From positions 1 through 49,380 of IMG/VR virus record IMGVR_UViG_3300005405_000040: DNA of 49,380 nt; one strand, written 5' to 3'. A program made the translations under genes and the position numbers. Positions within the stretch are counted from its first letter, which is position 1. Each line of letters opens with the position of its first letter. The notes under the pieces were generated by a model that had not been told where the DNA came from, did not search any database, and saw only the letters and a program-made list of their open reading frames with translations. This document shows, piece after piece, positions 208-49,267 of this stretch. The stretch comes from a virus. Taxonomy: Duplodnaviria > Caudoviricetes.

Positions 208-283
208 GGCGTAGCCAGCGTCAGGTCCGTTCACGAGTGTCAACTCCCCCCGTCTGGGGTAGTCTACAAGTATACAGTATACA
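208..283. repeat. Left copy of imperfect inverted repeat shared with the right end (49137-49215)
   Basis: 257-283 (27 bp), 219-236 (18 bp) and 208-216 (9 bp) are exact reverse complements of 49137-49163, 49184-49201 and 49207-49215. Confidence 0.9.
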
Positions 284-352: not shown

Positions 353-381
353 TTGACATCTCGAAGTGTAAGTCTTATTGT
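353..381 (+). promoter_or_regulatory. sigma70-type early promoter
   Basis: TTGACA-17 bp-TATTGT upstream of ORF 444. Confidence 0.65.
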
Positions 382-443
382 ATGTCTGTATGCTTCGCAT
401 ACAGCGTAAGTTCTACTAGCTTCGGCTAGCCAAACGAAGGGAG

Positions 444-662
444 GTGATTCTTTTGAAGCTTTCAATTCAGGAGCAAATTACTAATTTAGATGCGGAGCAG
501 AAGAAGGAATTGATTGCGCGGCTTAAGCTGCTCTCTATCGATCTTCTCGTGGAGCGGTTTGAAAAGGCGATTCAAGTGGCCCGCGCAAGTGAAGCTCGGG
601 CGATTGAGGCTGAGGCGCAGGTCGCAGTTTTGAAGGAGCTACTTATAGAGTTCCATCGTTAG
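444..662 (+). CDS. hypothetical early protein (coiled-coil)
   Basis: GGGAG RBS before GTG start; helical sequence. Confidence 0.6.
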   Translation: MILLKLSIQEQITNLDAEQKKELIARLKLLSIDLLVERFEKAIQVARASEARAIEAEAQVAVLKELLIEFHR

Positions 663-6164: not shown

Positions 6165-6500
6165 ATGCCTATAACAAAACAAGAGGATTGGCAGAAGTGG
6201 GTAGAGGCAAACCAAGACCCATATGGCGCTACCTGTATTAATGTGGCACGACAGGTGATGAAGATCTTGGATGAGGAACAAGAATTTGATCCGCACGTTA
6301 TTATTTGTCGTGCTGATGAGGAAACAAATACTGGTGGGATAACTGGCTTTATGGCCGGAGCTGTGGCCCAAATGGTGTCCCAATGTCATAGTCGTGGTGA
6401 GGAATTCCGTAAAGCATGGAATAAAAACATTGGTGGAGACACAAGGCAAGAAGAATCAGAAGGTGTCCTTAATCCTGCCATATTAATTATTACCGAGTAG
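6165..6500 (+). CDS. hypothetical protein
   Basis: AAGGAGG RBS. Confidence 0.65.
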   Translation: MPITKQEDWQKWVEANQDPYGATCINVARQVMKILDEEQEFDPHVIICRADEETNTGGITGFMAGAVAQMVSQCHSRGEEFRKAWNKNIGGDTRQEESEGVLNPAILIITE

Positions 6501-12147: not shown

Positions 12148-12332
12148 AAATAATAAGTTGTGAGGAATATACCTACGAGTATATAATCACCGATGCTTCG
12201 GAATATAATACATTCCGTCGGCATTCCGCTGAGGGCTGGGAGCAACTCCTTGGTGATTCTTGGGAGCCTGAATATGAGCCTATAGAACTTGAAGCAGCCT
12301 ATCAGGAATTTAAGAGGAAGGAAAACGAATGA
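12144..12332 (+). CDS. acidic hypothetical protein
   Basis: AAGGAG RBS; ATGA overlaps. Confidence 0.55.
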   Translation: MKIISCEEYTYEYIITDASEYNTFRRHSAEGWEQLLGDSWEPEYEPIELEAAYQEFKRKENE

Positions 12333-13723
12333 CCCCAAACCCAACCGAGTCCAAATCCGTCTCCTACGGCCCCTATCAACTAACCTTCTCCATGCTTCCA
12401 ACTGGCCTGATTGAACCTGGCGAACGCTTCCGAAAAGTCTACGAAGACGGAGGTGAGCTTGAGAATTCGATCCGGGAGCACGGAGTGCTCCAAAATCTCC
12501 TCGTCTACGCGCGTCCAAATCAGCCCTACCTACTTCTCGCTGGAGGCCGAAGGCTTCATTATGCTACGAAAGTCGGACTCGAAAGCGTCCCCGTTCTCAT
12601 CTCAACCCGCGAACTAAGTGACCTTGAAATCCGAACCCTCGAACTGGTCGAGAACATGCACCGTAGGTCGCTAGCCTACGAAGAAGACCTCGCCCTGAAG
12701 TGCGAAATTCACCGCCTGCAGCAGCAAATTCACGGGGAGGCTGTCGGAGGTGGAACTGGAAACGAGAAGCGTGGCTGGGGATTGCAAGACACCGCCAACA
12801 TGCTTGGCGTTTCAAAAGCCACTCTCAGCACGGACATTAAACTTGCTAAGGCCATGGAAAGCTTTCCTGAGCTTCGTGGCCTGAAGGACAAGAAGCAAGC
12901 GGCAAAGGTTCTCGACAGCCTTGTAAAGAACTACGTCCAGGAAGAGAAGGCCAATGAATACCGACAAAAGATGTCATCAGACGAAGGGCCTAAAACGAAG
13001 CTTTGTGCCTCTTATATTGTCGGCGACTTCTTTGACCGTGTTGGTGAGCTGCCTGCTGGTGCTTTTGATTTTGTGGAGGTTGACCCATTTTATGGAATAG
13101 AACTTCTTGATCTTTATGTGAAACGAGCCAATGGTGCTTGCGTTTATCAGAAGGAAAACTACACCGACGTCCCCAAACCTGTCTACGAGTGGTACATTCG
13201 CCAGACGCTTAAAGAATGCTACCGAGTAATGTCTGACAATAGTTGGGGAATTTGTTGGTTTGCTATGGAGCCTTGGTTTGAAACAACTTTCCAGGCAATC
13301 AAAGACGCCGGCTTCTTTTGTCGCCGTGTTCCTGGCTTTTGGATTCAACCAAGTGGTGCTGGTTACAATGTTAATCTTCTCCTTACGAACTCCATTGATT
13401 CCTTCTTTTATTTCCGAAAAGGTCAGCTTCCGTTGAATCAGCCCGGCACTTCGAACGCCTTCCTCTGCGGACACGTGCCGACGAGTCAAAAAATTCACCC
13501 AACCGAACGCCCTGTCGAACTCTACGAGCAAATCCTTCCAACCTTCATCGGCCCAAACTCCCGAATGTTCGTTCCGTTCGTCGGCTCTGGCAACCAACTT
13601 CTCGCCGCAGCGAATCTCCAGATCAACGCGATCGGTTTCGACCTTTGTGAGGATTATCGAAACGGCTTTATAGTTCGTGTGCAGGAAGGGGAGTTTGGCC
13701 ATTATAAATCTTTCAAACAGTAG
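12329..13723 (+). CDS. ParB/Srx + HTH + N6/N4 DNA methyltransferase fusion
   Basis: SIREHGVLQN...LLAGGRRL...ELVENMHR (ParB); QDTANMLGVSKATLS (HTH); VDPFY, HPTERP, PFVGSGN, GFDL (beta-class MTase order). Confidence 0.85.
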   Translation: MTPNPTESKSVSYGPYQLTFSMLPTGLIEPGERFRKVYEDGGELENSIREHGVLQNLLVYARPNQPYLLLAGGRRLHYATKVGLESVPVLISTRELSDLEIRTLELVENMHRRSLAYEEDLALKCEIHRLQQQIHGEAVGGGTGNEKRGWGLQDTANMLGVSKATLSTDIKLAKAMESFPELRGLKDKKQAAKVLDSLVKNYVQEEKANEYRQKMSSDEGPKTKLCASYIVGDFFDRVGELPAGAFDFVEVDPFYGIELLDLYVKRANGACVYQKENYTDVPKPVYEWYIRQTLKECYRVMSDNSWGICWFAMEPWFETTFQAIKDAGFFCRRVPGFWIQPSGAGYNVNLLLTNSIDSFFYFRKGQLPLNQPGTSNAFLCGHVPTSQKIHPTERPVELYEQILPTFIGPNSRMFVPFVGSGNQLLAAANLQINAIGFDLCEDYRNGFIVRVQEGEFGHYKSFKQ

Positions 13724-15532: not shown

Positions 15533-18130
15533 ATGCAAAATCCACTCGACTCCGACACCAACTACGCTGAGGCCCACACACCAAGTAGCACAGAAAACTG
15601 GTGCCCACCGGAGGGCGATCCAACAACCGCAAAAATCGCCCTCGTTGGAGAAGCTCCTGGCCTTCAAGAGCGCCGCCTGCGCAGACCATTCTGCGGTCCC
15701 TCAGGCCAGCTCCTCGATAAGCTTCTCTTGCGAGCGGGAATAAACCGTCGTGATCTTTACATTACTAACACCATTAAGGAGCAACCTGAGCGAAACGACA
15801 TCACACCCTTCCTCGACCTCTCCAAGAAAGTTCCTCGTGAAGGCGAAAAGTGGGACTACTATTGTGACCTGCTCAAGCGGGAGCTTGAATCCTCCACCGC
15901 GAACGTCATCGTCGCCGTTGGCGCCGTCCCCCTCTGGGCTCTCTGCGGAGCCAAAGCAATCACCAAGCGCCGCGGTTCAATCCTCGAATCCACCTTACTT
16001 CCAGGACGAAAAGTAATTCCAATCATTCACCCAGCCGCGGCTCTTCGTGAGTATATGTTCACCCATGTGATTTCGTGGGACTTGAAACGGATCAAACGTG
16101 AGGCTGAGTTCCCAGAGATTTGTCGGAAAGACAACAAGCTCCTTCTTGGACCAAGTTACGATGAGGTAATAAGCTTCGTAAGGCAACTCTGTGCTTTCCT
16201 TCGATACCAAGCTACTAACGCCTACACCGAAATTGACATTGAGGTTTTGAATGAGGAAATCTCCTGTCTTTGTGTAGGGCACGAAGATTTTGGCACGATC
16301 ACAATTCCATTCGTTTGTGATAATGGAGACTACTTTTCACCTGAAGAAGAGGAAGAAATCTGGTCCGTTCTCACTCTACTCCTTGAAGACTCAAACATCA
16401 AAAAGCTCGGACATAACATAACCTTCGACGCAACCTTCATTTTTCGTAAGCTTGGAATACGAACTTTTCCCGTCCTTGACACTATGGTCGCACAAGGTGT
16501 TGCCTTTCCCGATGCTGTGAAAAAAGAAGATAATAAAGCTCGGATTGATAGTGGAACGGATAAGAAGGAACTTCGAGCCTTACGCCTAGGTCTAGATTTT
16601 GTAACCTCAATTTACACAGACGAGCCATACTACAAAGATGATGGAAAAAAGTGGTTTAAGCTCGGCGGTTCTCCTCAGGACCTTTGGCGATACAACGCAA
16701 AAGATGGAGCTGTGCTTCCTGAGATCCACCGGAAGCAACTCTTGGAGTTGCGGAAGCAAAAGAACGAACACGCCTACGAGATGCAACTTCAACTCATCGA
16801 GCCTCTCGTTTACATGGGCGAGCGTGGGATTCGTTGCGATACTAGCGGACTTAAGAAAGCCAGTATATATGCCTGCGAGGAACTGGATTGTCTTGTAGGA
16901 GCCCTCCACGAACTTTGTGGCTTCGAACTAAACCCAGCGTCACCAAAGCAACTTGCGGAGTATTTCTATGAAACAAAAAAGTTCAAACCTTACCTCAATC
17001 GAAAGTCCGGAGCCGTCTCTACCGACCGTGACGCACTTAAGAGATTGGCTCGAAAGGGCTCGAAGGAAGCATCGCTACTCCTCGAAATACGTAAACTTAG
17101 TAAGCTTAAAGGAACATATCTTGACATCAAACTTGATCCTGATTCACGTCTGCGATGCGCTTTTAACCCAATTGGAACATCAAGTGGAAGACTTAGCTCT
17201 TCTCAGACGATCTTTGGAACAGGCGGGAATATGCAAAACCTGCCAAGCGACTTCAAACAATTCCTCCAATTCGACTCCGGATTCATAGGCTACAACGTCG
17301 ACCTCTCACAAGCGGAGAACCGCACGGTTGCCTGGGTTGCCCCGGATGAACTCATGATGCGGGCCTTTCAAGATGGGCTTGATATTCACTCGCTTACGGG
17401 GAGTCTAATCTTCAACATCCCTTATCAGCAAGTAAAAGAGGAGGACGAACGTGGCATATTTTGTGAGATTGGTGGCGGAATTTACACACGACGTTTCTGG
17501 GGAAAGAAGGCAAACCACGGGCTTAATTACGACCTTGGGTTCCGAACCTTCGCCTTCTACTATGAAATCCCAGAAAGAGAGGCTCAGTTTATTGTTGAAC
17601 GCTACCATCGCGCATATCCAGGCGTACGACAATACCATGCTTGGGTCCGCAATAAGCTCTCACAGGGCCGCACTTTGGAGAACTGCTTGGGGCGTAAGAG
17701 GCTCTTCCTCGACCGCTGGGGCGATGACCTTTTTAAAGAGGCCTATTCCTTCATCCCGCAAAGCTCAATCGCGGATAAAGTGAACCATCACGGACTGATT
17801 CCGCTCTATTATGACTCCGACTTTCGAAAGGTCGATATCCTCAATCAGGTCCACGACTCGCTTGTTTTTCAAATTCCTCTCAGCCTTCCTATCGAAAAAC
17901 ACGTCGAGATCCTTCTCAACTTGCGTAGCAGGCTCGAAGAGCCGATCACTTTCGACGGTCGCTCGTTCTCCATTCCGATGGACATCGAAGCCGCACCCGA
18001 AGGTGGAAATTTAGGCAAGTTCCATCCTGAGAAGAACGCGCTTGGTCTGCACAAATGCAAGGGCCGAACGCAAGCGGAGCTTGCAAGAGAGGTTCGTTCG
18101 ATTGTTGAACAAGCCAAGATTGGAGGTTAG
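15533..18130 (+). CDS. polA: DNA polymerase family A with N-terminal uracil-DNA glycosylase domain
   Basis: UDG: VGEAPG..E, PFCGPSG, HPAA; exonuclease: DIE, HNITFD, YNAKD; polymerase: GRLSS, DLSQAENR, KKANHGLNY, VHDS. Confidence 0.95.
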   Translation: MQNPLDSDTNYAEAHTPSSTENWCPPEGDPTTAKIALVGEAPGLQERRLRRPFCGPSGQLLDKLLLRAGINRRDLYITNTIKEQPERNDITPFLDLSKKVPREGEKWDYYCDLLKRELESSTANVIVAVGAVPLWALCGAKAITKRRGSILESTLLPGRKVIPIIHPAAALREYMFTHVISWDLKRIKREAEFPEICRKDNKLLLGPSYDEVISFVRQLCAFLRYQATNAYTEIDIEVLNEEISCLCVGHEDFGTITIPFVCDNGDYFSPEEEEEIWSVLTLLLEDSNIKKLGHNITFDATFIFRKLGIRTFPVLDTMVAQGVAFPDAVKKEDNKARIDSGTDKKELRALRLGLDFVTSIYTDEPYYKDDGKKWFKLGGSPQDLWRYNAKDGAVLPEIHRKQLLELRKQKNEHAYEMQLQLIEPLVYMGERGIRCDTSGLKKASIYACEELDCLVGALHELCGFELNPASPKQLAEYFYETKKFKPYLNRKSGAVSTDRDALKRLARKGSKEASLLLEIRKLSKLKGTYLDIKLDPDSRLRCAFNPIGTSSGRLSSSQTIFGTGGNMQNLPSDFKQFLQFDSGFIGYNVDLSQAENRTVAWVAPDELMMRAFQDGLDIHSLTGSLIFNIPYQQVKEEDERGIFCEIGGGIYTRRFWGKKANHGLNYDLGFRTFAFYYEIPEREAQFIVERYHRAYPGVRQYHAWVRNKLSQGRTLENCLGRKRLFLDRWGDDLFKEAYSFIPQSSIADKVNHHGLIPLYYDSDFRKVDILNQVHDSLVFQIPLSLPIEKHVEILLNLRSRLEEPITFDGRSFSIPMDIEAAPEGGNLGKFHPEKNALGLHKCKGRTQAELAREVRSIVEQAKIGG

Positions 18131-42490: not shown

Positions 42491-43279
42491 CTAACCCACG
42501 CTAACAAACATTTCAGTTGCCCACAAGAAACGCTTTGTGAAGGGTGGAAAGGTTTTATTCCAATGGGCTGCATTCAAATTGCCGATTAATCCAAGCTTAT
42601 TAGCTAGATACCGCTCCAGCCGCATGATATTCTCAACACCTACGTCCTGACTACAGAACCATGCCGCCGCGATCACGCATGTCATCCACCGATTGCCGTA
42701 GTAGTTGGCCCCCAAATTGCATCGGTTAAACGTGCCGCTTGCATTGGTTCCGCCTGCCACGGAAAGAACACCCTGCCGCTGAAAGCTCTTCCCGCCCGTG
42801 CTGTTTCGCATGGAGGCGAAAATCCACGAGCTTGCGTTGAGATCCCCACCCACGGAAACTCCCTGAACGTCTCCATATGCAGCAGTGGACCCGCCTCCCG
42901 TCTCGATCCGGCAAAGCTGCCTCGAAGCAGGGTCAAAGCCAGTCGTAAGGGATATCGGATTTTTCCACTCTTGCGCGGTATTGGAATAGACCAGGCACCC
43001 GAAAGAGAAATTGTTTGCTGCTACATCCCCCACGTTTCGCGTCAAGAAAGTGTTGAAACCATTCGAGAAAGCGGCGCCGCGCACACCGCCGACCGATACT
43101 TGCCAGGGCTGTGAACCGTAGTAGGCGAAAGATCCCGAACCGTGGACAGCATTCCAGGTTGAAATATACGAGCCATCCGAAGGAAGCGTGTCAGGATCGG
43201 CATAAATCACAAGGCCGGGCAGGCTTGCCGGTGTCCACCCTTGCCACTCAGTCGAGGGTTTTGAAACGTTACTTGCCAT
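42491..43279 (-). CDS. ConA/LamG-like virion or receptor-binding protein
   Basis: WTPASLPGLVIYAD...LERYLANKLG; paralog of the next ORF. Confidence 0.6.
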   Translation of the reverse strand: MASNVSKPSTEWQGWTPASLPGLVIYADPDTLPSDGSYISTWNAVHGSGSFAYYGSQPWQVSVGGVRGAAFSNGFNTFLTRNVGDVAANNFSFGCLVYSNTAQEWKNPISLTTGFDPASRQLCRIETGGGSTAAYGDVQGVSVGGDLNASSWIFASMRNSTGGKSFQRQGVLSVAGGTNASGTFNRCNLGANYYGNRWMTCVIAAAWFCSQDVGVENIMRLERYLANKLGLIGNLNAAHWNKTFPPFTKRFLWATEMFVSVG

Positions 43280-43292
43280 TTCTTGCCCCTCC

Positions 43293-44099
43293 CTATGCCG
43301 CGCTCAGAAAGACTTCAGCGCTCGTGAATGTCCGGTTCTGCTTTTGATAGTACGGATGTGCAGAGTTAAGAGCCACGTTGCTAAAAGCTGCCAAGTAGCC
43401 TTCAATATCTTCTATTTGAGTTGTGGTTAAATTGGCAGCGGCGCCTTGTAAGTGCAAGCAGTCCAGAATATTGACATTACTGAGGTAGTCAACAATGGAA
43501 TTGTATACTGCATTGCACCCGATATTTAGAGTGTTTGTCGGGTCTACTCCGGCAACCGTGCTTACACTCTGTACCTGAATGCCATTCAATCGAAAGCTAA
43601 CTGTGCTTGGCCCGGGCAACCATTTCAGAACAGCTATACTCTTGCCCGTCCTTAGAGTTTGATTGGTCCCTGCGCCAGTGCTAGCAACGGTAGGCCACTG
43701 AAAGCTAATCGTGTTATTGCCTACAATTATCCCCAGATGCCCCCGCCAACCACTTGAGTTCCACGCACCTTCAATGATGCTGCCCGCCGCAATAGCAGGA
43801 TTAGGCACATCAATGACAGCTACAAACAGATGCTGTGTGTCGTTAGGGTTACCCAACGAAGACATGTCGTATTGCTGCACTCCGGTGAACACCGCTTCGC
43901 CATTCGTCAGTGCTGCTCTTTTTGCATCCGTGGCTTGTGTTCTTGCTCCACCACTTCCGAGATTAGTGAAAGAGGAAATCTTTCCATTTATCAGGGTGTT
44001 CGCGGCCTGCACCGTGGAAATCCAATGCCTTATAGTAGCAAAGGTTAACGGATTTTGCGTAGGCCAGTATCTTGCTGCCTTGGATACATTGTCAGCCAT
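43293..44099 (-). CDS. ConA/LamG-like virion or receptor-binding protein
   Basis: RLNGIQV, LNIG, IEGYLAA...HPYY. Confidence 0.6.
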   Translation of the reverse strand: MADNVSKAARYWPTQNPLTFATIRHWISTVQAANTLINGKISSFTNLGSGGARTQATDAKRAALTNGEAVFTGVQQYDMSSLGNPNDTQHLFVAVIDVPNPAIAAGSIIEGAWNSSGWRGHLGIIVGNNTISFQWPTVASTGAGTNQTLRTGKSIAVLKWLPGPSTVSFRLNGIQVQSVSTVAGVDPTNTLNIGCNAVYNSIVDYLSNVNILDCLHLQGAAANLTTTQIEDIEGYLAAFSNVALNSAHPYYQKQNRTFTSAEVFLSAA

Positions 44100-46583: not shown

Positions 46584-47039
46584 TCAGTGTATGTCCTCAT
46601 GATCCGAGTCGATGTCGAAGAAGCGAATCCGGCCGATTTGCCGAACGAATTTCTCTTTCGTGGCCCAGCACGGGGCGCTGATTGAAGTGTCGAAATAGGA
46701 GTCTGCGCCTGGCGCGGGGTTCTCACTAGAACCGCTTAGGACTTCGCACGCAATCCGCAACGCGCGGAGCCAACTTGCGTCGCTCGAATCAGAGGGCCAA
46801 GTCGTGAGCTGCGGGTCGCCCTTGAACGTAAGACTGGAATATTGAAGGCGTTTGAATAGTACCGAACAGATGTCGGAGCCCCACCATGCCGGTCGAGCAA
46901 CCCGATTAAGAATCGAAAAAGCAACGGCTCGTTGGCATTCTTCGCTCTCTCCGCGAGCCTCACGCCAAACGGTTAGCGCGAGAAACGTGAGTTCGGCTTG
47001 CGCTGTTAGACACTTATGGAAGGCGGAAACGATTGGCAC
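46584..47039 (-). CDS. cell wall hydrolase (SleB/Hydrolase_2) endolysin
   Basis: LALTVWREARGE...AVAFSILNRV...QYS...GADSYF...PCWA...IGRIRFF. Confidence 0.9.
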   Translation of the reverse strand: MPIVSAFHKCLTAQAELTFLALTVWREARGESEECQRAVAFSILNRVARPAWWGSDICSVLFKRLQYSSLTFKGDPQLTTWPSDSSDASWLRALRIACEVLSGSSENPAPGADSYFDTSISAPCWATKEKFVRQIGRIRFFDIDSDHEDIH

Positions 47040-47051
47040 TTCGTGCTCCTC

Positions 47052-47252
47052 TCAGCTCTTTCGATTTGACTGCAAGTAACCGAGCAGCCCGGTCGCTATT
47101 GGCAGCGCAACTTCTGTTGCTCGGTCGAGAAAAACCGATGCGAGTGCAACAAGCGCTAGGGCGAAAACGGTTAGGGCCTCACTCGTTGGCGGAGGCCAGT
47201 TTTCTGGAATTAGTCGGTTTGGTCGGTTTGGTCGGTCGACTGAGAACTCCAT
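47052..47252 (-). CDS. small membrane protein, possible holin
   Basis: Two hydrophobic segments; GAGGAG RBS; immediately upstream of the endolysin. Confidence 0.5.
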   Translation of the reverse strand: MEFSVDRPNRPNRLIPENWPPPTSEALTVFALALVALASVFLDRATEVALPIATGLLGYLQSNRKS

Positions 47253-47653
47253 TCGTTCGGCTCCTCTTGTTAATTCTAATTCTTCCTATCTACTTTTGCA
47301 CACTTGTCTTGAAAAAGCAAGTAATATTATTCATGTGTATTAATAACATTCTTGTTCACTACACCGACCCAGCAATTCGCAGAATTGTGAATCGCAATTC
47401 GCGCGGAGCTCGAAAATAGGCTTGTTCGAAAGTCGAACACACCTATTTCGCATTCTGTTTCGCAGAATGCGAAACGCACCTGACTTCGAAAGTTCTCACA
47501 AGAGTTAACAAGAGTCATACCCTTTCGCACTCCAACTTTTCCTGCACCCAACGAGCGGGGGCTCATTTCCCCTAAGGCCAGGCCCTCCATGTGACTCATT
47601 TCAGGCGCATCGCGCTTCCGAGTGCGAGCGGCGTTGCGGCGGAACTCGAATAG

Positions 47654-47682
47654 TTGACAAGAGTGAACCATTCTGATAGTAT
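47654..47682 (+). promoter_or_regulatory. strong sigma70-type promoter
   Basis: TTGACA-17 bp-TAGTAT. Confidence 0.8.
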
Positions 47683-47759
47683 CCTCAGCAAGTGAGCAGT
47701 TCGCTGCAAGCGAACGCAGTTCGCTGCAAGTGCAGCGAGCGAAAGCTCACACTCTTACG

Positions 47760-47772
47760 GGTTCTTTGACAT
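47760..47772 (+). promoter_or_regulatory. boxA-like antitermination element
   Basis: GGTTCTTTGACAT (cf. boxA TGCTCTTTAACA / GTTCTTTGAAAA), preceded by a hairpin leader. Confidence 0.6.
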
Positions 47773-47781
47773 ACTGCTTTT

Positions 47782-48105
47782 CAACTAGCATCTCGACTAC
47801 ACGCAACGCTTGTGCAGCAGAGCTGCACAATGCGTCTGAGAGAGCGTCAGAGCGTGTGTGAGAGCGAGTTCTTTCGCTCGACGTGCTGTAGCACGTCGCT
47901 AGAAAGCGATCGCTTGAGAGAGCGCTAAACAGCTCTCAAGCGCGATCTGAACTTCGCTCACTGAGTATGACGATAGTGTCTAGCAGACACGCTTCGCGTT
48001 TCTTGCGCGTAAACACCGCGCAGTAACGAAGCGCTCTTCGAGCGAAGCTCGAAAGAAGTCCGTTTCATTCTACTCATCCTCGTTGTCTAGTTCGCTAAAG
48101 CGAAC
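47782..48105 (+). ncRNA. large multi-branched structured non-coding element
   Basis: No ORF; nested stems AACTAG/CTAGTT, CACGC/GCGTG, GAGCGA/TCGCTC and TGAGTA/TACTCA enclose about 7 hairpins. Confidence 0.65.
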
Positions 48106-48159
48106 GGTCTGTTCGAAAATCGAACGAGCCTACTTGCGCGATGCGCAAAGGAGCGTTCG

Positions 48160-48327
48160 ATGAGAGGTACATTTAGACACCGAAGAAAGTTTACTGGTTG
48201 GGATTATCCGATCAATGATAGTGGTTGGTTTATTTACCGTTGTGTTTACAAAGACTCAAACCTTGAGATAGTAGTGTTTAGCTTGGCACTAAGGTATGAT
48301 TGGATATCCGTAGACTTTGATATTTAG
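48160..48327 (+). CDS. hypothetical protein (55 aa)
   Basis: Hand-translated; AAGGAG RBS; bracketed by palindromes 48106 and 48339. Confidence 0.5.
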   Translation: MRGTFRHRRKFTGWDYPINDSGWFIYRCVYKDSNLEIVVFSLALRYDWISVDFDI

Positions 48328-48447
48328 TATTCCAGACAGGCTCGTTTGATTCTTGAACAGACCGTTCGTTTCAAGCCAATCCAAGAAGCGCGTAGCGATG
48401 CTACGTAGCTGCATCGAAGCGCGCAAAGCGCGCAGAGGGAGAGTAGA

Positions 48448-48864
48448 ATGAAATCCATGAAGATCACAATTTCGACAAAGTTGGAGAACGGAACGAAGTG
48501 GGAATTGAAAGATTGCGAATATTCGATTCCTGAAACGCTTAAGGAATGGACCGAATACTTGGGGGAAGAAAAGATCATCCTCACGCTGGAAACCTATGAT
48601 GGGATTCGCCGGCAGGATGCCGGGCGACGCGCCAAAGTTGGCGGAAAAACTCTCGCCCCGCTTTCGGATTGGAAGATTCGGAAAGAAATCGTGCCCGGAT
48701 TCAAACTCTTCGAACGGACCCGCGTGAGCGCGGAGAAGCGAGATCCAAAAGAACAGATTCTCGCGCAAGAGCGGGAAAAAGCCCTCGCCGATGTGCGGGC
48801 AATGGCAGAGGCGTTGGGGATTTCGTTGGACGAAATCGTTGGAGCGGAGAAGAAGAAGAAATAG
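48448..48864 (+). CDS. small putative DNA-binding protein, paralog of 4609-5019, H-NS-like C-terminus
   Basis: Shared motifs with the 4609 ORF; EREKALADVRAMAEALGISLDEI. Confidence 0.7.
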   Translation: MKSMKITISTKLENGTKWELKDCEYSIPETLKEWTEYLGEEKIILTLETYDGIRRQDAGRRAKVGGKTLAPLSDWKIRKEIVPGFKLFERTRVSAEKRDPKEQILAQEREKALADVRAMAEALGISLDEIVGAEKKKK

Positions 48865-49136
48865 CCGTTCGCACATCGTGCGATCGCATCGCGGTGCGCG
48901 ACGAGGGTGGGTAGAATGAAGCGGACTTTTTTCGCGCTTTGCGCGAAAGCGGGCGCGTTTTGCGCGTGAAACGCGCAAAAGAGTATACAAGCGTACACTG
49001 TATGCGATGTATGTGTAAAGTGTATGTGTGTAGACTCTTTTTTCGCGCTTTGCGCGAAATGCTCGAAATGCGCTAAGTGTGCGTTTTTGCTCGCTTTCTT
49101 CGAAAGCGTATGTTTGTATGCAAAGTGTATGCAAAA

Positions 49137-49215
49137 TGTATACTGTATACTTGTAGACTACCCATGTGGGGGGGGCGCGAGCGTCGTGAACGGACCTGAC
49201 GGCGACGGCTACGCC
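49137..49215. repeat. Right copy of the imperfect inverted repeat
   Basis: Reverse-complement blocks matching 208-283. Confidence 0.9.
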
Positions 49216-49267
49216 GACGGGCGGGCGCAGGGTCGGACACGGCGGGCGGTTGGGTCTTTTTTTTTTC

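Follow-up and report, generated by a model that had tools for sequence, protein, structure and literature searches.

The hairpin-rich stretch at 47782-48105 of the window (the whole phage sequence of 49,380 nt that was analysed) is probably the expanded leader of the first early transcript, organized like that of a ribosomal RNA (rrn) operon, with a 5' arm that is predicted to block the ribosome-binding site of a 138-aa early gene until the trailer of this gene has been made (Table 1). An earlier note had described this stretch as a self-contained structured non-coding RNA of about 320 nt. Parts of that description hold, namely that the stretch is most likely plus-strand RNA made from an early promoter, that a boxA was correctly called and that the sequence belongs to no Rfam family. 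The autonomy of the RNA is not supported: the last third of the element forms one arm, the 5' one, of a long helix with the trailer of the 138-aa gene and is also a predicted anti-Shine-Dalgarno (anti-SD) sequence.

Table 1 Features of the first early transcription unit, in window coordinates
Feature	Position	Strand	Remarks
Sigma70-type promoter P1, TTGACA-17-TAGTAT, extended -10	47654-47682	+	10/12 consensus matches
Pre-boxA hairpin leader, GG/CC-poor	47689-47760	+	GG/CC 1 seen versus 11.7 expected
rrn-type boxA, GTTCTTTGACA	47761-47771	+	Kept behind the early promoter in relatives
GG-free hairpin expansion from boxA to the helix arm (domains 1 and 2, hairpin GTGTCT/AGACAC)	47772-48003	+	
5' arm of the leader-trailer helix	48004-48086	+	Core 48037-48085, extension 48004-48028
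Predicted anti-SD/anti-AUG in the 5' arm	48064-48081	+	Pairs with 48435-48452
Nested cassette of two inverted copies of the genome-wide palindrome	48098-48371	+	Copies 48098-48131 and 48338-48371; 33 pairs, 3 G-U
Putative 55-aa ORF inside the cassette, between arm and gene	48160-48327	+	AAGGAG site
Shine-Dalgarno (48435-48439) and 138-aa early gene (48448-48864)	48435-48864	+	
3' arm (trailer)	48898-48977	+	Paralogous to the 5' arm, in inverted orientation; includes a copy of the SD/AUG region
Long hairpin and downstream T run	48978-49043	+	Read by eye; the terminator scan lists 49092-49108 instead

The phage has a genome of ~49 kb that encodes an SU10-type capsid and portal, a family A polymerase, Sak4 and Thy1. 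It is present in a groundwater metagenome run that is its possible source. Among named records the nearest is Desulfofustis phage LS06-2018-MD01 (48% identity in the terminase and a similar order of genes), whose host assignment derives, in the accessible part of the source, from CRISPR spacer matches, one of them below 80% identity (10.1101/2023.02.06.527410). The gene content further includes a Tad4-like inhibitor of type I Thoeris defence (window 6165-6500; Pfam PF25186, E 1e-11), a ParB-N and DNA methylase fusion (window 12329-13723) and a UDG-like domain fused to the N terminus of the family A polymerase (window 15533-18130). The late genes run leftward from ~47250 and P1 points rightward into the hairpin element. 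Both the promoter and the boxA reported ahead of the hairpins are in place (Table 1). The boxA lies 78 nt past the -10 box of P1, and the promoters of relatives occupy the same relative position. From the promoter we infer a transcript start at ~47689, and the hairpin and T run behind the trailer are the probable end of the P1 transcript. A second early promoter (TTGACA-17-TATTGT, window 354-382) serves the next early genes; downstream of it, by eye, comes a GG-free leader with a cUUCGg hairpin directly before the Shine-Dalgarno of the ORF at 444 (window 354-445).

The boxA is of the type found in rrn operons. Specifically, the strict motif occurs in 10 of the 20 16S leaders that belong to the same phylum as G001 (the L099 genome, titled Nitrospirae), the remaining 10 being within 2 mismatches, versus 0/20 control windows; it also occurs in 3/14 16S leaders in each of two other phyla. 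For this set, 50 of the matched loci were examined, 2 of which had too little upstream sequence. An exact copy of the window's boxA 11-mer GTTCTTTGACA is present in the 16S leader of L245, and L125 shares with the window the boxA plus the 8 bases after it. These sequence matches support the boxA motif and give no host assignment. The unit behind the phage boxA encloses protein ORFs and no rRNA, and searches within it returned no tRNA or Rfam match. According to the folding predictions, the boxA is largely paired (unpaired probability 0.28-0.41), which would hinder NusB.

Much of what had been reported about the element itself is borne out. It contains no ORF of 50 aa or more, GG and CC are nearly absent (0 and 3, respectively, versus 45 expected; P 4e-16), and its folding energy departs from that of dinucleotide shuffles with z -4.35 on the plus strand and -4.68 on the minus strand (-3.0 to -5.5 against 3- and 4-mer shuffles), a level of -4.4 to -5.0 being reached by 4 of 114 genome windows of 150 nt. 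The search against Rfam 15 gave 0 hits at the gathering score and, by E-value, chance hits only, and the palindrome at 48106 is present as one of at least 16 genome-wide copies. All eight arm pairs named for the proposed helices exist as exact reverse complements, but the topology and boundaries built from them were not confirmed. The closing stem AACTAG/CTAGTT has a probability of 0.58 in the isolated 324 nt and of 0.00 in 3/3 folds starting at 47689; 47782-48105 is thus not a self-contained unit, and the stem was rejected as its boundary. The domain-2 helix CGCTTGAGAG/CTCTCAAGCG reaches a probability of at most 0.07, being outcompeted by a slid register. Of the three hairpins of domain 3, two melt when the trailer is present in the full-transcript fold. 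The motif TAAACA does occur twice (47926 and 48010), but it was dropped as a meaningful recurring loop, since by our estimate a repeated 6-mer is expected by chance in 324 nt and one copy melts in the full fold. On the opposite strand, a 36-codon frame with a Shine-Dalgarno-like site (window 47962-48072) is present as a by-product, because the ribosome-binding region is copied there in inverted orientation. Contigs aligned over the element show no variant letters, and a 183-nt contig of run X2 matches window 47992-48035 (44 nt, 5 differences) before continuing into unrelated GG-free repeats; it is possibly the leader of a relative.

Could the hairpin region nevertheless be a stable RNA with a function of its own, such as acting as a sponge for a host defence or regulatory protein that binds RNA, ~375 nt long and freed by cutting of the helix? 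We regard this as unlikely. The folding of 47689-47962 is strong (z -3.7 to -6.1, with a 12-bp closing helix in the predicted fold; -3.0 to -4.3 for 47782-47962 alone), but alternative folds of this region compete and the fold of the element has no strand preference. The pre-boxA leader (47689-47760) is able to pair with 47857-47879 and 47949-47962. The extreme GG/CC depletion would suit a dedicated RNA, and a cut in the helix would free exactly a piece of ~375 nt, yet the same GG/CC-poor hairpin style pervades neighbouring non-coding DNA (47689-47760, 48372-48433, 48865-49160 and 261-430) while being absent from other intergenic gaps and coding sequence. Long non-coding stretches behind boxA do exist elsewhere: in L144 (minus strand, ~2610-1500), a promoter and boxA precede a 329-nt GG-poor leader before the first gene, with z only -1.2, and in phiEco32, by eye, boxA copies lie behind early promoters together with a 1.9-kb gene-free stretch. 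The element had no homolog in phage records (blastn, E <= 1), among 104 loci (blastn/nhmmer) or among 120 promoter-boxA loci (nhmmer), and no significant similarity to phiEco32 or L144 (best E 0.11). Protein-anchored scans with single proteins or a small-terminase-like alignment found nothing in viral or genome contigs, and a metagenome scan recovered two copies of the same phage plus two short contigs without the region. Given this lack of a hairpin homolog, the same genomic position was examined in terminase relatives instead, and the leaders scored there are short (43-143 nt from boxA to ATG). No positive evidence emerged for the sponge, anti-defence, primer or antiterminator roles that the earlier note had listed.

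Two downstream stretches of the same strand are complementary to the last third of the element. First, 48037-48085 pairs with 48899-48947 over 49 columns, with 41 Watson-Crick pairs, 6 G-U pairs, 2 mismatches and no A-C; by eye, the two mismatches amount to one compensatory change inside a local hairpin. The resulting leader-trailer helix contains 37 contiguous pairs at p 0.98, and the duplex is worth -74.6 kcal/mol on the plus strand versus -54.6 on the minus strand. Second, the arm is predicted to cover the Shine-Dalgarno and start codon of the 138-aa gene: the 17 anti-SD pairs form with p 0.96-0.97 in transcripts ending at 48500 or 48870 and with 0.00 in the full transcript, and the cost of opening the SD/AUG region falls from 22.8 kcal/mol with the arm to 8.3 without it, these and the helix values being equilibrium folding predictions. 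The motif GAGG..GTAGAAT was considered as a DNA site and set aside, as its occurrences in the window are the ribosome-binding site of the gene, the complement of that site and its trailer copy. The few GG/CC dinucleotides of element and trailer lie mostly within the switching arms, which fits an avoidance of competing pairings, the weakest step of the reading.

The same layout recurs in relatives. We examined 80 viral and 19 genome terminase loci, together with six promoter-boxA loci that have a small-terminase-like gene, and found a recurring order of promoter, boxA, leader arm, small first gene and trailer arm. With G-U and A-C scored alike, a helix score of at least 12 was obtained for 18 of 19 units (17/18 relatives plus the window) versus 5 of 317 control ORFs; across the family helices G-U outnumbers A-C by 36:2, versus 193:154 in the controls. 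The exception is L078, where boxA is present and the helix score falls below 12. In this set, L001, L017 and L021 had escaped the promoter filter and were therefore included manually (L001 is closely related to L017), and the gene of the window was also set by hand, with 450 nt upstream instead of 150. L140, a duplicate, was removed, and no gene was scored in L010 or L144. Two of the control hits (L006 and L102) are themselves first genes behind a promoter, and the other three belong to one second-gene family (L037, L048 and L052). Arm sequences are wholly different even between clear homologs of the first protein (L019/L110 and L088/L181). Counting the best ORF per locus, the helix is found in 16 of the 49 terminase loci with at least 4 kb upstream and in 14 of the 23 that reach early genes: the leader-trailer layout is common, not universal. 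On the early side of L037, L048, L052, L021, L032, L060 and L092, a second early ORF also scores a leader-trailer helix of its own, which suggests nested or tandem helices.

This pairing pattern weighs on accounts at the level of DNA, in which the tract is a feature near the first-entering genome end (an ssDNA origin, an entry signal, or restriction-site or PAM avoidance) or a neutral pile-up of quasi-palindromes. With DNA parameters the element folds equally well on both strands (z -5.2 and -5.4), it contains triloops of the GCGAAGC type, known as stable DNA mini-hairpins, and arm and trailer are inverted paralogues. The family helix, however, keeps its G-U pairs on the transcribed strand, behind a promoter and boxA and bracketing a gene, a bias that disfavours the ssDNA origin which the earlier note had offered as its alternative; strand-biased C-to-T or A-to-G mutation could be an alternative source of the 6:0 G-U bias in the window. 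Coding sequence in the same tract is, moreover, not depleted in GG/CC (56 seen versus 56.6 expected). Contig depth in run X1 is 38 over 47423-49248, versus 24 to the left of it and 21 in the contig of the left end. Such a rise would be expected from a terminal repeat covering the P1 unit; a second strain could also contribute to it. A better candidate at the level of DNA, an inverted repeat beside homopolymer runs, adjoins the tract. We hold an explanation of the tract in terms of DNA to be very unlikely. This 65-nt repeat (window 219-283 and 49137-49201) joins the contig ends beside the homopolymer runs where the assembly breaks, and is a candidate origin or genome-end signal; in L001, by eye, runs of G and A at the corresponding position (~43060-43440) are likewise surrounded by an inverted repeat. 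A second phage is also present in run X1, at a depth of 6.6; near the endolysin gene (window 46770-47397) it shows 47 differences in 368 nt, and it extends into the region upstream of P1.

Occlusion of the ribosome-binding site is predicted in relatives too, with p values that overstate independence because the loci are related: opening the site costs 9.7 kcal/mol in 16 first genes versus 6.5 in 150 controls (p 2e-4), blocking the arm lowers this cost by 4.4 kcal/mol versus 0.9 for equally placed control blocks (p 1e-4), and after blocking the two groups stand at 5.3 and 5.6 kcal/mol (p 0.45). The window, L078 and L017 were left out of this comparison, and the controls were drawn from 604 candidates. 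A drop of at least 5 kcal/mol is seen in 6 of the 16 relatives versus 7 of the 150 controls, and the drop is near zero or reversed in L012, L024 and L170. The predicted switch is not universal among relatives.

The enclosed 138-aa protein has 15 hits at E <= 0.001 among 1.84 billion cluster representatives, no Foldseek match at E <= 0.001, no PHROG or Pfam family match and no usable Atlas hit; a match to the H-NS N terminus (E 0.0017) lay below the cut-off and was not taken up. Homology to the first genes of relatives was considered and discarded (hhalign probability 5.7%; the one phmmer signal, within a set of 19, was to L125 at E 0.007), so that the gene is a positional equivalent only. Between arm and gene, the predicted 33-pair palindrome duplex loops out the putative 55-aa ORF, which has no PHROG or Pfam hit. 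The palindrome itself, AGGCTTGTTC-N7-GAACAAGCC, occurs at 16 sites or more, many of them at gene boundaries, in early and late regions (for example 675, 3931, 6709, 19971, 23538, 32294, 42456, 47418, 48106 and 48338). It is a candidate operator, RNA hairpin or processing site; the pattern was found in none of the viral contigs, and in L125 the corresponding region contains repeats of another palindrome.

The succession of promoter, boxA, leader, small first gene and terminator-like hairpin parallels the lambda order pL-nutL-N, and the 138-aa family has a conserved basic IRxxDxxR helix. The leader might accordingly serve antitermination in the manner of lambda nut or HK022 put, with the 138-aa or 55-aa product acting like N and binding a hairpin. 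Hairpins do flank the window's boxA, but by eye no boxB-like hairpin is conserved among relatives; the 138-aa protein lacks an N-family match and is predicted to be folded, not disordered (pLDDT 85.7; 50.9 in an earlier model); and the next early genes have their separate promoter at 354-382. Antitermination would, in addition, leave the leader-trailer helix unexplained, and we consider it highly improbable.

Among the closest parallels to the expanded leader proposed here is the rrn operon itself. In the accessible parts of PMC10250234 and PMC8632103, rrn operons are described as having a boxB-boxA-boxC leader, an rrnTAC complex (NusA/B/E/G, SuhB and S4) and a 16S leader-trailer helix cut by RNase III, and the suggestion is made that the Nus complex keeps the leader close to the exit channel; the same portion of PMC10250234 places the rrn boxA ahead of the leader-trailer helices that RNase III cuts. 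The phage unit resembles this arrangement in its strong promoter, rrn-type boxA, variable leader hairpins and one strand of a long helix whose partner lies past the enclosed gene, and also in that the arm sequences vary freely while the pairing is kept. It differs in enclosing a protein gene and in having an arm that doubles as a predicted anti-SD. The distance from boxA to the 5' arm is 265 nt in the window, versus 1-96 nt in relatives and 18-19 nt between boxA and boxC in enterobacteria (PMC10250234, in the part available), and Nus loading and RNase III cleavage are only predicted for the phage unit.

Three other groups of known systems share some of these features. As reported in the accessible text of PMC5725501, Nus factors repress translation downstream of boxA and are proposed to loop the RNA, and lambda N is repressed through nutL; pL-nutL-N is similar in having a boxA in a long structured leader from which the first early gene is repressed. 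Unlike lambda, the phage leader shows no visibly conserved boxB and has no N homolog downstream, its boxA is of the rrn and not the lambda type, and the predicted repression is by base pairing, with the trailer lifting it. The mRNAs of type I toxins (aapA/IsoA and hok/Sok) also rely on anti-SD uncoupling and a long-distance 5'-3' interaction, in the portion of PMC6733600 available; there, by contrast, the full mRNA is held inactive by the long-distance pairing and becomes active on 3' trimming, whereas in the phage the pairing is predicted to activate. Neither an antisense antitoxin nor a small toxin was identified in the phage unit, and the promoter scan lists no opposite-strand promoter. Finally, the element is long, ORF-free and rich in hairpins like GOLLD, ROOL and OLE, as these are presented in the available part of PMC12286853, but differs from them in having no Rfam match, homologs or defined ends, in its competing folds, and in that part of it pairs with mRNA.

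Under the leader model, host RNA polymerase would start at ~47689 and the boxA would load the host Nus/SuhB complex, which would shield the long untranslated RNA from Rho and keep the 5' part of the leader close to the exit channel. During transcription of the gene, the arm would pair with the SD/AUG region and keep ribosomes off. Once made, the trailer, with its longer copy of the site, would displace the SD/AUG region from the arm and form a duplex of ~50-80 bp. With the site freed in this way, translation would be limited to complete messages. An RNase III-type enzyme would probably then cut the duplex, so that the gene is released on a processed mRNA. The GG-free hairpins that separate boxA from the arm may serve as a compact inert spacer, with G/C runs almost all confined to the switching arms; this is again where the model is weakest. 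The best reading of these hairpins is a lineage-specific expansion of the leader. A compound version, in which a completion sensor built on hijacked rRNA machinery also frees a ~375-nt GG-free RNA that works alone, for example as a decoy for a defence protein, appears quite unlikely.

Our searches of open-access literature, judged from result lists and the openings of abstracts, showed no report of this layout in phage early genes. If the model is correct, lytic phages surround a protein gene with signals reused from the host's rrn operons, namely boxA and a leader-trailer helix, and set up a translation switch that is released by the gene's own 3' end. Translation would then be separated from transcription in bacteria by a mechanism that is conserved but independent of sequence, which would offer a small model for the Nus complex as an RNA chaperone that brings leader to trailer. 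More generally, ornate ORF-free stretches behind early phage promoters can be leaders and not new classes of non-coding RNA.
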